Under the pieces are notes generated by a model. The model was not told the DNA's origin and searched no databases. It was given only the letters and a program-made list of their open reading frames with translations. A DNA stretch of 64,000 nucleotides. It comes from Escherichia coli (GTDB lineage Bacteria > Pseudomonadota > Gammaproteobacteria > Enterobacterales > Enterobacteriaceae). The DNA is taken from the NCBI RefSeq assembly GCF_030384885.1, contig NZ_CP128613.1. The stretch is one strand, 5' to 3'. Below, one piece after another: positions 1,850 through 39,737 of this stretch. Position numbers and translations under genes: made by a program. Each line of letters starts with the position of its first letter. Position 1 is the stretch's first letter.

Positions 1850-3241
1850 ATGACAACCGAAACGCGTTCCCTCTATAGTCAACTTCCGGCTATTGATCGC
1901 TTATTGCGCGATAGCTCTTTCCTTTCTTTGCGTGATACCTATGGTCACACCCGCGTGGTGGAGTTGCTGCGTCAGATGCTTGACGAAGCGCGAGAAGTGA
2001 TTCGTGACAACCAGACGCTGCCCGCATGGTGTGAAAACTGGGCGCAAGAAGTCGATGCCCGGCTGACGAAGGAGGCGCAGAGCGCGCTGCGTCCGGTGAT
2101 CAACCTGACGGGAACCGTGCTGCATACCAATCTTGGGCGAGCTTTACAGGCAGAAGCCGCGGTGGAAGCCGTTGCGCAGGCTATGCGTTCGCCAGTGACC
2201 CTCGAGTACGATCTGGACGACGCCGGACGCGGACATCGCGATCGGGCGCTGGCACAGCTGCTGTGCCGCATTACGGGGGCGGAAGATGCCTGTATCGTTA
2301 ATAACAATGCGGCGGCGGTATTGTTGATGTTGGCGGCCACTGCCAGTGGGAAAGAGGTGGTGGTATCTCGCGGCGAACTGGTGGAGATTGGCGGCGCGTT
2401 TCGTATTCCTGATGTCATGCGTCAGGCAGGCTGCACCCTACACGAAGTGGGGACCACCAATCGCACGCACGCTAATGATTATCGCCAGGCGGTGAATGAA
2501 AATACCGCTCTGTTGATGAAAGTACATACCAGTAACTACAGCATTCAGGGGTTCACCAAAGCGATAGATGAAGCTGAACTGGTGGCGCTCGGCAAAGAGC
2601 TGGATGTTCCAGTGGTGACGGATTTAGGCAGTGGCTCGCTAGTCGATCTTAGCCAGTACGGTTTGCCGAAAGAGCCAATGCCGCAGGAGTTGATTGCGGC
2701 GGGCGTCAGTCTGGTGAGCTTCTCCGGCGACAAGCTGTTAGGCGGGCCGCAGGCAGGAATTATTGTTGGTAAAAAAGAGATGATCGCCCGCCTGCAAAGC
2801 CATCCACTGAAGCGTGCATTACGCGCGGATAAAATGACCCTCGCGGCGCTGGAAGCCACGTTGCGTCTTTATTTACACCCTGAGGCGCTGAGTGAAAAAT
2901 TACCGACCCTGCGTCTGCTTACCCGCAGCGCAGAGGTCATTCAAATCCAGGCACAACGTTTACAGGCCCCCCTTGCCGCACATTACGGCGCGGAGTTCGC
3001 GGTACAGGTTATGCCATGTCTTTCGCAGATTGGCAGTGGTTCGCTGCCGGTTGATCGCCTGCCGAGCGCGGCATTAACGTTTACACCCCATGATGGACGC
3101 GGTAGCCACCTTGAGTCATTAGCCGCCCGCTGGCGTGAATTGCCAGTGCCGGTGATTGGTCGTATTTATGACGGACGATTGTGGCTGGATTTACGCTGCC
3201 TTGAAGATGAGCAACGGTTTTTGGAGATGTTGTTGAAATGA
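1850..3241 (+). CDS. selA: L-seryl-tRNA(Sec) selenium transferase (selenocysteine synthase)
   Basis: 463-aa ORF, recognised; 4-bp ATGA overlap with selB. Confidence 0.93.
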
Positions 3242-5082
3242 TTATTGCGACTGCCGGACACGTTGACCACGGCAAAACAACCTTATTGCAGGCGATTACT
3301 GGCGTAAATGCCGACCGTCTGCCGGAAGAAAAAAAGCGCGGTATGACCATCGATCTCGGCTATGCCTACTGGCCGCAGTCAGATGGTCGCGTGCCTGGTT
3401 TTATCGACGTTCCCGGCCATGAAAAATTTCTTTCCAACATGCTGGCGGGCGTCGGGGGAATCGATCACGCGCTGTTGGTGGTGGCGTGCGATGACGGCGT
3501 GATGGCACAGACTCGTGAGCATCTGGCGATTTTGCAGCTGACCGGTAACCCGATGCTGACAGTGGCGCTGACCAAAGCCGATCGCGTGGACGAAGCGCGT
3601 GTTGATGAGGTTGAACGCCAGGTAAAGGAGGTGCTGCGGGAATACGGTTTTGCTGAGGCAAAACTGTTTATCACCGCAGCAACCGAAGGCCGGGGAATTG
3701 ATGCCCTGCGCGAGCATCTGCTTCAGTTACCAGAACGTGAACACGCCAGCCAACATAGCTTCCGCCTCGCTATCGACCGTGCTTTTACCGTAAAAGGTGC
3801 CGGGCTGGTCGTCACCGGTACGGCGTTAAGTGGGGAAGTGAAGGTAGGCGATTCACTCTGGCTGACTGGTGTAAATAAACCGATGCGCGTGCGTGCGCTA
3901 CATGCGCAAAATCAGCCAACAGAAACTGCCCATGCCGGGCAGCGTATCGCGCTTAACATCGCGGGTGATGCGGAAAAAGAGCAGATTAACCGTGGCGACT
4001 GGCTGCTTGCCGATGCGCCGCCGGAGCCGTTCACACGGGTGATTGTCGAGCTTCAAACCCATACACCGCTGACCCAGTGGCAGCCGCTGCATATTCACCA
4101 CGCCGCCAGCCACGTCACGGGACGCGTTTCGCTGCTGGAAGATAACCTTGCCGAGTTGGTGTTCGACACGCCGCTGTGGCTGGCAGATAACGATCGCTTA
4201 GTGCTACGCGATATCTCGGCCCGCAACACGCTGGCGGGGGCGCGCGTGGTGATGCTTAACCCGCCGCGTCGCGGTAAACGTAAGCCGGAATATCTGCAAT
4301 GGCTGGCGTCTCTTGCACAGGCGCAGAGCGATGCCGATGCGTTAGCTATTCATCTGGAACGCGGAGCGGTTAACCTTGCTGATTTCGCCTGGGCGCGCCA
4401 GCTCAACGGCGAAGGGATGCGTGAACTGCTGCAGCAACCGGGCTATATTCAGGCCGGTTATAGCTTGTTGAATGCGCCGGTTGCCGCTCGTTGGCAGCGT
4501 AAAATTCTCGATACCCTGGCGACTTATCATGAGCAGCATCGCGATGAACCAGGTCCTGGGCGCGAGCGTCTGCGGCGCATGGCGTTGCCAATGGAAGATG
4601 AAGCGCTGGTGCTGTTGCTGATTGAAAAGATGCGCGAAAGCGGCGACATCCTCAGTCATCACGGTTGGCTGCATCTGCCGGATCATAAAGCGGGATTCAG
4701 CGAAGAGCAGCAGGCTATCTGGCAAAAAGCGGAGCCGCTGTTTGGTGACGAGCCGTGGTGGGTGCGTGACCTGGCAAAAGAGACGGGAACCGACGAGCAG
4801 GCAATGCGTTTGACGCTACGCCAGGCGGCCCAACAGGGGATAATTACCGCGATCGTTAAAGATCGTTATTACCGTAACGATCGGATTGTCGAGTTTGCCA
4901 ATATGATCCGCGATCTCGATCAGGAATGTGGTTCAACCTGCGCGGCGGATTTCCGCGATCGCTTAGGTGTAGGCCGAAAGCTGGCAATTCAAATTCTGGA
5001 ATATTTTGACCGTATTGGCTTTACGCGTCGCCGTGGAAATGATCATTTATTGCGCGACGCATTATTATTTCCCGAAAAATAA
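3238..5082 (+). CDS. selB: Selenocysteine-specific translation elongation factor
   Basis: 614-aa ORF with N-terminal GTPase motif [11 protein letters not shown], recognised. Confidence 0.93.
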
Positions 5083-5139
5083 GGGAACGATTAATTCATA
5101 ATAAATATGAATTAATACAAAGTTCTTATTAATGTTAAG

Positions 5140-5177
5140 GAAGCACGTTATTTGATGAATGTAACGTGCTTTTTATT
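5140..5177 (+). terminator. Rho-independent terminator downstream of selB
   Basis: Inverted repeat agcacgtta / taacgtgct followed by T-run. Confidence 0.6.
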
Positions 5178-5271
5178 AAAAATATTTTAATAAACGGTAA
5201 TGTTGATCATATTTTCAAATGAAAATCCTCAGTAAGCTGCCCGCCCTTTTTTACACTTTCAGGAGTGTGTT

Positions 5272-6423
5272 ATGGCAGCTTCAACCTTTTTTATTCCTTC
5301 CGTGAATGTTATTGGTGCTGATTCATTGAATGATGCAATGAATATGATGGCAGATTATGGATTTACCCGTACCTTAATTGTCACCGACAATATGTTAACG
5401 AAATTGGGTATGGCGGGTGATGTGCAAAAAGCACTGGAAGAACGCAATATTTTTAGCGTTATTTATGATGGCACCCAACCTAACCCCACCACGGAAAACG
5501 TCGCTGCAGGTTTGAAATTACTTAAAGAAAATAATTGCGATAGCGTAATCTCCCTGGGCGGTGGTTCTCCGCACGACTGTGCAAAAGGTATTGCGCTGGT
5601 TGCAGCCAACGGCGGTGACATCCGCGATTATGAAGGCGTTGACCGCTCTGCAAAACCGCAGTTGCCGATGATCGCCATCAACACCACGGCGGGTACGGCA
5701 TCAGAAATGACCCGTTTTTGCATCATCACCGATGAAGCACGTCACATCAAAATGGCGATTGTGGATAAGCACGTCACTCCGCTGCTTTCTGTCAATGACT
5801 CCTCGCTGATGATCGGTATGCCGAAGTCACTGACCGCTGCAACGGGTATGGATGCCTTAACGCACGCTATCGAAGCGTATGTGTCTATTGCCGCCACGCC
5901 GATCACCGACGCTTGCGCACTGAAAGCGGTGACTATGATTGCTGAAAACCTGCCCTTAGCCGTTGAAGATGGCAGCAATGAGAAAGCGCGCGAAGCAATG
6001 GCTTACGCTCAGTTCCTCGCGGGTATGGCGTTCAACAATGCGTCTCTGGGTTATGTTCATGCGATGGCGCACCAGCTGGGCGGTTTCTACAACCTGCCAC
6101 ACGGTGTATGTAATGCTGTTCTGCTGCCACACGTTCAGGTGTTCAACAGCAAAGTCGCTGCTGCACGTTTGCGTGACTGCGCTGCTGCGATGGGTGTTAA
6201 CGTGACAGGTAAAAACGATGCGGAAGGTGCAGAAGCCTGCATCAATGCCATCCGTGAACTGGCGAAGAAAGTGAATATCCCGGCAGGCTTGCGTGACCTG
6301 AACGTGAAAGAAGAAGATTTCGCGGTACTGGCGACCAATGCCCTGAAAGATGCCTGCGGCTTTACTAACCCGATTCAGGCAACTCACGAAGAAATTGTGG
6401 CGATTTATCGCGCGGCGATGTAA
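5272..6423 (+). CDS. yiaY: Iron-containing (group III) alcohol dehydrogenase
   Basis: 383-aa ORF, Fe-ADH family features, recognised. Confidence 0.9.
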
Positions 6424-6623
6424 TCATCATTCCCATAATGGCTGGCTAATTGTCAGCCATTTTTTCAACTCTCTCAAAATTTGCGATTTTTGAGAGAGTT
6501 TTAGTTATCTCTGTAATCCTTGCCCGTAAATTCGTGATAGCCGTCGTAAAGCTATCACCAGCTGGCGAAGATTTCGCCAGTCACGTCTACCCTTGTTATA
6601 CCTCACACCGCAAGGAGACGATC

Positions 6624-39570: not shown

Positions 39571-39737
39571 ACGTTATCCCCTGCCTGACCGGGTGGGGGA
39601 TAATTCACATCTATATATATCAGTAATTAATTAATATTTAGTATGAATTTATTCTGAAATCATTTGTTAATGGCATTTTTCAGTTTTGTCTTTCGTTGGT
39701 TACTCGTAATGTATCGCTGGTAGATATGGAGATCGTT

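Follow-up and report, generated by a model that had tools for sequence, protein, structure and literature searches.

Between selB and yiaY of Escherichia coli, in a stretch of 64,000 nucleotides from contig NZ_CP128613.1 (assembly GCF_030384885.1; the whole stretch is called the window below), lies a 27-bp inverted repeat at positions 5090-5116, which we refer to as the dyad. We find the dyad to be real and not random, with constraint acting on its outer arms. The gene under its control is most likely yiaY, and we tentatively favour a model, which we consider quite possible, in which the dyad forms a pair of inverted docking sites for proteins of the H-NS family and helps to silence an FNR-dependent yiaY promoter. 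The case for this model is made by conservation together with published occupancy and expression data; a match to the H-NS motif by itself proves nothing.

The left arm of the dyad (5090-5100) reads ATTAATTCATA and the right arm (5106-5116) reads TATGAATTAAT, with the 5-nt spacer ATAAA between them. The two 11-bp arms are fully complementary, and the repeat extends neither outwards (5089 G opposite 5117 A) nor inwards (5101 A opposite 5105 A). No strand is assigned to the dyad or to other features given here without one. The repeat begins 8 nt past the stop codon (5080-5082) of selB (614 aa, 3238-5082, plus strand) and is followed by the selB terminator hairpin at 5141-5171; its right and left ends lie 156 and 182 bp, respectively, from the ATG of yiaY at 5272. 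The perfect repeat, its place between the selB stop and hairpin and its distance of about 160 bp from yiaY, as given in a preliminary description of this DNA, were verified by these measurements. Perfect inverted repeats with arms of at least 10 and spacers of at most 12 numbered 12 in the 64 kb, and three of them fall in the 189-bp selB-yiaY spacer. When this spacer (28.6% G+C) was shuffled 5000 times with dinucleotides preserved, an arm of at least 11 was obtained in 0.32% of the shuffles, and three repeats of at least 10 were obtained in none. Being this rare in shuffled sequence, the repeat is real and not an artefact of composition.

Several simple explanations for the repeat were rejected. 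The preliminary description had judged it too AT-rich for a terminator, and we agree: one of its 11 pairs is C-G, the stem is followed by ACAAAG and not by a T-run, and a terminator scan of 4900-5400 was empty. A scan for sigma-70 promoters at the dyad was empty on both strands, and an antisense extended -10 element found there by hand (TGTATTAAT) has a -35 element in the window allele only. A dispersed repeat of the REP/BIME or ERIC type would be G+C-rich and present in many copies; a 50-mer across the dyad occurs at one place in every matching E. coli genome, and the surrounding 351-bp region at a median of 1 and a maximum of 2 places per genome (5425 genomes). The dyad is also unlike a site for the FNR/CRP family, as it reads TTCAT-N7-ATGAA, compared with TTGAT-N4-ATCAA or TGTGA-N6-TCACA.

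The locus was found in 5425 of 5426 complete E. coli genomes, with an identity to K-12 of just 88% over 351 bp. The perfect-arm allele of the window, recognized by the 50-mer across the dyad, was present in 1262 complete genomes (23%), and the K-12-type 50-mer in 1665. The K-12 allele reads ATTAATTAAGTTTTAAAATAAATTAAT, and that of O157 and the enteropathogenic E. coli (EPEC) strain E2348/69 reads ATTAATTAATTTTTAAAATAAATTAAT. The 27-bp span and the seven outermost base pairs of either arm are common to all E. coli alleles, which vary in the inner part; K-12 retains 7 bp per arm, and the perfect 11 bp are found in one allele. The window and K-12 differ by 7.7% over 1.55 kb of selB-yiaY, a figure that rises to about 20% over the initial 150 bp of the spacer. 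A deep allelic split thus runs through selB-yiaY in E. coli (window approximately 4380-5930; loci L001-L004); the xylB-yiaB region, also in the window, shares 99.2% identity with K-12. Strain FDAARGOS_1290 looks recombinant, having a K-12-type spacer and a yiaY start identical to that of the window. In four E. coli metagenome loci (L113, L130, L164 and L165) and in C. farmeri (L086), the right arm core AATTAAT is changed to AATTGAT, a substitution that converts a T-A pair to T-G and that an E. coli sub-allele and C. farmeri acquired separately. In E. coli ETEC1701 (locus L005), an IS1 element is present at the very end of selB and the DNA from yiaY through part of yiaN is deleted, showing that the dyad and yiaY are dispensable in this strain.

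Loci from other lineages were collected by a YiaY scan, two SelB look-ups and a metagenome scan using a degenerate pattern for the 3' end of selB. The arm cores, ATTAATT on the left (5090-5096, with AATT at 5093-5096) and AATTAAT on the right (5110-5116, with AATT at 5110-5113), and the 27-bp span were identical in the E. coli alleles, E. albertii, the C. freundii group and Pseudocitrobacter. The sequences behind these shared arms include three E. coli alleles, four C. freundii-group sequences and two from Pseudocitrobacter. The dyad reads ATTAATTAATGTTAATCATGAATTAAT in E. albertii, ATTAATTCAG(A/G)(G/A)AT(T/C)AAATGAATTAAT in the C. freundii group and ATTAATTTAAATAT(T/C)AAATGAATTAAT in Pseudocitrobacter, and is followed by ACAAA or ATAAA in all three. 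The 13 central bases differ among lineages with identical arms. In two Pseudocitrobacter loci (L010 and L154) the SelB frame runs on to a TAA stop inside the left arm (GAT TAA TTT), and translation of selB ends within the dyad.

Column conservation was calculated from one representative per lineage in 10 lineages, those with a decayed dyad included. It reached 91% in the arms, compared with 69% in the centre, 63-69% in the flanks and 82.5% in the terminator stem; individual columns of the left arm core ranged from 0.6 to 1.0. Random sets of 14 spacer columns attained the arm value with a permutation p of 5e-5. Over the whole selB 3' flank, conservation was highest in the block AATGAATTAATACAAA (5105-5120), and ATGAATT was the best window of seven columns. 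The spacing of the arms was invariant, though indels are present elsewhere in the spacer. A partly decayed dyad was seen in C. farmeri, C. amalonaticus, Kluyvera and two further lineages, and the dyad was absent from three further lineages with selB-yiaY and from Pluralibacter, where aldB is inserted between selB and yiaY. No dyad was found after selB in the Klebsiella- or Enterobacter-like metagenome flanks that have no yiaY there, or upstream of yiaY homologues that do not adjoin selB (Serratia, Hafnia, Proteus, Vibrio and others), whose promoters have just the FNR-like box in common with that of E. coli. Because it is absent after selB alone, the dyad belongs to the selB-yiaY junction and not to selB. 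As far as orthologous regions are concerned, the outer arms and their spacing held across genera, and the perfect 11 bp of the preliminary description proved to be allele-specific.

Published data place the dyad in a region bound by H-NS. Chromatin immunoprecipitation on microarrays (ChIP-chip) in K-12 gave H-NS regions at 3755039-3757215 (anaerobic) and 3755059-3756664 (aerobic) (Myers et al., 2013). Anchored on the selA and yibF/rhsA peaks (offset approximately 3884-3892), these coordinates could be transferred to the K-12 record, and the K-12 dyad, at approximately 3756013-3756047, lies near the middle of both regions, which have a resolution of 1.6-2.2 kb and report on the K-12 and not the window allele. 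The yiaY gene (5272-6423, plus strand) encodes an iron-type alcohol dehydrogenase annotated as L-threonine dehydrogenase, and it is not transcribed in standard K-12 cultures. Among the genes that are oxygen-dependent in a Δhns ΔstpA strain only, yiaY has a +O2/-O2 ratio of 0.153 (Table S11 of Myers et al., 2013), corresponding to 6.5-fold higher expression in anaerobic than in aerobic cells. Activation of yiaY by Ler, a paralogue of H-NS, was 5-fold and 9-fold in EPEC E2348/69, and other core (non-mobile-element) genes activated by Ler in the same tables include leuO and pagP. Taken together, H-NS occupancy and the expression data indicate that the control region of yiaY is silenced by H-NS/StpA. 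A tie between allele type and Ler responsiveness was considered and rejected, EPEC E2348/69 having the O157-type allele. Neither yiaY nor selB is named in the supplements of the in vivo protein occupancy display study (IPOD-HR).

The promoter that would be silenced can be predicted from the spacer. A putative FNR-type box, GTAATGTTGATCAT, is present at 5197-5210, with a conserved right half and a degenerate left half; GATCAT was invariant in every selB-yiaY spacer. Boxes of the FNR type are found at the orthologous position in Proteus (TTGATGATGATCAA), Rahnella (TTGCGCCAGATCAA) and Serratia (TTGTGATAGATCAT). A good box of this kind stands about 65 nt before the yiaY ATG in Proteus, Serratia, Rahnella, Hafnia, Xenorhabdus and Aliivibrio (L012-L030), and in Escherichia and Citrobacter its right half (GATCAT) alone survives. 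A candidate -10 hexamer, TAAGCT, lies at 5233-5238 on the plus strand, its T and A being invariant in selB-yiaY spacers. With this hexamer and the box centred at -41.5, the predicted yiaY start would be at about 5245, which puts the centre of the dyad (5103) about 140 bp upstream with the terminator in between. In Shigella flexneri, yiaY changes by a log2 of +3.18 without oxygen and by -2.73 in a Δfnr strain, and the predicted FNR-dependent promoter agrees with this FNR-dependent anaerobic induction. The invariant right half, the good boxes in relatives and the FNR dependence in Shigella all suggest that 5197-5210 serves as an FNR box. The supplementary tables of Myers et al. (2013), FNR peak tables included, contain no peak labelled yiaY or selB, and yiaY appears in Table S11 alone; masking of the FNR site by H-NS at yiaY is therefore what we infer and not what those tables record.

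High-affinity (nucleation) sites of H-NS follow the consensus tCG(t/a)T(a/t)AATT (Lang et al., 2007, PMC2094087; PMC3219716), and the DNA-binding domains of both Ler and H-NS favour an AATT core with a narrow minor groove (PMC3219716). The left side of the dyad matches this consensus at 9 of 10 positions (ACGATTAATT, 5087-5096, plus strand) and the right side at 8 of 10 (TGTATTAATT, 5110-5119, minus strand), the second match being inverted relative to the first. In lineages that keep the dyad the fit was 7-9 of 10, and in those where it has decayed it was 5-8 of 10. In the model that we favour, the two arms would act as a paired high-affinity docking (nucleation) site for H-NS, StpA and, in EPEC, Ler. 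A filament of H-NS would spread from the arms over the 3' end of selB, the spacer and the start of yiaY, and would mask the class II-type FNR-dependent promoter with its box at 5197-5210 and -10 element at 5233-5238. For the gene to be expressed, FNR would have to be active and silencing lifted, either by Ler or through loss of H-NS/StpA. That the arms themselves are the points of contact for H-NS is something we infer, and the model does not require the perfect 11 bp.

The dyad shares with known H-NS nucleation sites an AATT core in both arms, the 9/10 and 8/10 fits, a region that is H-NS-bound in K-12, and a gene that is silenced by H-NS/StpA and activated by Ler. It differs from them in being a strict, fixed-spacing dyad kept across genera, which has not been described for H-NS sites, and in that a motif match here is near chance in such A/T-rich DNA. 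A parallel is offered by the E. coli nir promoter, where FNR binds at -41.5 and upstream Fis, IHF and H-NS sites repress. Common to both would be an FNR-dependent, class II-type promoter (predicted for yiaY) with an A/T-rich nucleoid-protein element, about 140 bp upstream in the case of yiaY. They differ in that the yiaY promoter and start are predicted, that an intrinsic terminator lies between element and promoter, and that the left half of the yiaY FNR box is degenerate. H-NS acts with FIS and IHF upstream of nir (PMC2094087).

Several points weigh against the docking-site model. Fits of at least 8 of 10 occur at 0.6% of positions at this composition, so that about two are expected in the spacer, and the H-NS motif is not enriched in the window. 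At a resolution of 1.6-2.2 kb, the ChIP-chip data do not single out the dyad. Lineages in which the dyad is decayed or absent (C. farmeri, C. amalonaticus, Kluyvera and three others with selB-yiaY) still keep the GATCAT promoter box. Lastly, it is unusual for sites of nucleoid proteins to be kept to the base across genera, and a sequence-specific factor would account better for such conservation.

GATC (Dam) sites are densely clustered in the last 230 bp or so of selB (window approximately 4850-5045). A 2025 preprint (PMC11741368) described a 7-site GATC cluster in K-12 with dam-dependent changes in the occupancy of RNA polymerase and of total protein, and stated that no binding protein is known for this cluster at the selB 3' end. 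An H-NS region covers the GATC stretch, and an IHF peak lies at 3756423-3756791, corresponding to approximately 4346-4714 of the window (Table S3 of Myers et al., 2013). H-NS and IHF may be the missing proteins at the 3' end of selB.

An alternative that we hold to be unlikely is that the dyad is the operator of a dedicated, sequence-specific regulator. Such a regulator would recognize ATTAATT(C)A-N9-T(G)AATTAAT, as a dimer of dimers or as a dimer spanning two helical turns, and would modulate yiaY from upstream, for example as an anti-silencer or from a distal operator. Half-sites conserved base for base, invariant spacing and a free centre are the classical signature of a specific operator, and the loss of the dyad from some lineages that keep yiaY would fit the loss of a lineage-restricted factor. 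The preliminary description had ascribed to the repeat the geometry of a site for a dimeric regulator, which stood in so far as both arms and their spacing are conserved, the centre is free and no RNA covariation was seen. It did not stand in other respects: the arms are perfect in one allele, some 20 bp separate the centres of the conserved half-sites, the dyad lies far from the predicted start, no second conserved copy was found in the 64 kb, and the published data point to H-NS/StpA (and Ler) rather than to a specific regulator. A match to known E. coli transcription-factor sites was not obtained, no motif fitting the dyad, and a literature search found no paper that ties a regulator to yiaY. 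Comparison by hand with the consensus sequences for ArgR, ArcA, Fur, NsrR, Fis and IHF gave no convincing fit; the K-12 allele agrees with that of ArcA at 12 of 15 positions, with both key G residues absent, and the match is absent in the window allele.

As for regulators of known type, the half-site TAATTCA resembles sites of winged-helix, ArsR-type proteins (HlyU and SqrR/YgaV). In V. cholerae the HlyU site, TAATTCAGACTAAATTA, is likewise distant, at -173, and the SqrR/YgaV motif is ATTC-N8-GAAT. With the operators of HlyU, BigR, SqrR and YgaV the dyad shares A/T-richness and the TAATTC/GAATTA half-sites, and nine bases, TAATTCAGA, are common to the V. cholerae HlyU site and the dyad of the C. 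freundii group. The spacing, however, is ATTC-N11-GAAT and TAATT-N13-AATTA in the dyad, compared with N8 and N7 in the HlyU/SqrR type; the spacer is thus 3-6 bp longer, which would put the half-sites out of reach of one dimer of this type. In addition, the C and the G of the half-sites are missing from K-12 and O157, and the YgaV operator region at ygaV looks different. An operator of the HlyU/SqrR/YgaV type (a 17-bp dyad, TAATT-N7-AATTA) was rejected for its wrong spacing and the dissimilar ygaV promoter, despite the similar half-sites.

The sole second match to the dyad in the 64 kb, ATTAATTAATATTTAGTATGAATTTAT at 39626-39652, lies 86 nt before the ATG of yiaB and has the 27-bp geometry with 2 mismatches, for which 0.03 occurrences are expected in 64 kb. 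Another of the published H-NS regions contains it, and Table S11 (oxygen-regulated in Δhns ΔstpA only) lists both yiaB and yiaA. Its right part, ATGAATTTATTCTGAAA, is conserved into Citrobacter; none of E. albertii, E. fergusonii and Citrobacter shows a conserved left arm. Because the left arm is not conserved, this match does not establish an operator shared by yiaB and yiaY, and its failure to persist as a dyad in other species counts against a dedicated regulator.

We regard as improbable the further alternative that the dyad has no dedicated function and is an old A/T-rich quasi-palindrome perfected by template-switch mutation, its conservation reflecting composition, ancestry and the alignment of low-complexity sequence. 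In keeping with this, the inner self-complementarity differs by lineage, being CATA/TATG in the window, ATTTT/AAAAT in O157 and ATG/CAT in E. albertii, and a Kluyvera-like contig has an inner repeat of AATTGATATA/TATATCAATT. The difference of about 20% between the two E. coli alleles in the spacer is near the neutral expectation from a coding divergence of about 6%, and several lineages without the dyad retain yiaY. A second perfect palindrome, of A/T pairs only (TTTATTAAAA-ATA-TTTTAATAAA, 5172-5194), abuts the T-run of the terminator in the interval between terminator and promoter; it is allele-specific, perfect in the window allele and imperfect in K-12. Set against these points are the arms, whose conservation significantly exceeds that of the centre, the flanks and the terminator stem among lineages with saturated silent sites, the invariance of the spacing despite indels elsewhere in the spacer, and the three perfect repeats in 189 bp that were never reproduced in 5000 shuffles.

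The perfect 11 bp themselves are a recent elaboration of an older dyad of 7-9 bp, and their perfection looks like the outcome either of template switching at quasi-palindromes or of selection for symmetry. Quasi-palindromes are reportedly hotspots of template switching, according to the work of Ripley and Lovett. As at such hotspots, an imperfect repeat has here been perfected by coordinated changes, in separate events that gave each lineage a sequence of its own; unlike the perfection of the inner arms, however, the long-term invariance of the outer arms is not explained in this way. The Kluyvera-like contig (Ga0256408_1000015, L098) carries its perfect 10-bp palindrome, AATTGATATA-GAAAA-TATATCAATT, just past the selB stop, and related Kluyvera sequences (L011 and L105) are imperfect at that position. 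The K-12 counterpart of the 5172-5194 palindrome includes TAGATTAATT, which fits the H-NS consensus at 9 of 10 positions; at the same position the C. freundii group has TGTTATT-AA-AATAACA and Pseudocitrobacter TATTTTT-N8-AAAAATA.

The dyad lies in transcribed sequence, upstream of the terminator, and could instead act as an RNA stem-loop in the 3' untranslated region of selB, affecting the stability or processing of the mRNA or a read-through into yiaY coupled to selB translation; we find this very doubtful. The RNA of the window allele folds with -8.3 kcal/mol (z = -7), that of the C. freundii group with -6.0, and that of C. farmeri with -6.2 in a shifted stem with G-U pairs. On the other hand, hardly any folding is predicted for the K-12 allele (-0.9 kcal/mol, z = +0.3) and weak folding for that of O157 (-2.5), the perfect-arm allele being present in about one-quarter of complete E. 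coli genomes. In an alignment of 23 sequences, none of the seven outer pairs of the dyad showed a compensatory change, compared with five of ten in the adjacent selB terminator, which provides an internal positive control for the test of covariation. Changes in the arms were losses, one-sided and mostly U-A to U-G, the last of which is a hint in favour of a stem. RNAalifold dropped the dyad stem and kept the terminator alone, and no credible Rfam match was obtained for the dyad region even at E <= 10. Given the lack of compensatory changes in the arms and the slight folding of the K-12 allele, a conserved RNA hairpin is unlikely. A constraint on structure alone would let the stem sequence vary, which it does not, and nucleases would hardly be held back by a stem of A/U pairs. 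The perfect 10-bp stem of other sequence in the same place, in the Kluyvera-like contig, speaks for an RNA structure, as does an outer helix in Escherichia, in which the selB stop region (5080-5085, TAAGGR) pairs with 5123-5128 (TTCTTA) and encloses the dyad. In E. albertii this outer helix is TAATAG/TTATTA, a G-C to U-A double change relative to E. coli that is weak evidence, and the pairing was not seen in Citrobacter. A literature search for a small RNA from the 3' end of selB found nothing relevant. On balance, invariant arms and spacing with a free centre are the pattern of sequence-specific recognition of duplex DNA.

Bolder versions of these alternatives can be framed, and we give them a low probability. 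The dyad could be the operator of an undescribed, lineage-restricted regulator, with half-sites ATTAATTCA-N9-TGAATTAAT two helical turns apart, that gates H-NS silencing and FNR activation; or it could be an RNA stem that couples the end of selB translation to read-through into yiaY.

Two neighbouring features complete the description of the region. The intrinsic terminator of selB (5141-5178, plus strand) consists of the stem AAGCACGTTA/TAACGTGCTT (5141-5171) followed by TTTATT, and it is in this stem that the compensatory changes at 5 of 10 pairs were found across lineages. Between yiaY and aldB, at 6467-6500, lies an inverted repeat with perfect 13-bp arms, AACTCTCTCAAAA-TTTGCGAT-TTTTGAGAGAGTT, which is probably the terminator of yiaY or a control element of aldB.

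The yiaY gene encodes a conserved, normally silent alcohol dehydrogenase whose regulation is known from genome-wide lists alone. A short conserved element in a region covered by H-NS provides a mutable handle on the silencing and un-silencing of a core-genome promoter, and the dyad bears on whether nucleation sites of H-NS can be under purifying selection across genera. The contrast between E. coli alleles with perfect 11-bp and with 7-bp arms amounts to a natural experiment. The dyad may also answer the question of the unexplained protein occupancy that the 2025 preprint reported at the 3' end of selB. Should the reading as a regulator site or as an RNA stem be true, the dyad would represent a new control input for yiaY.

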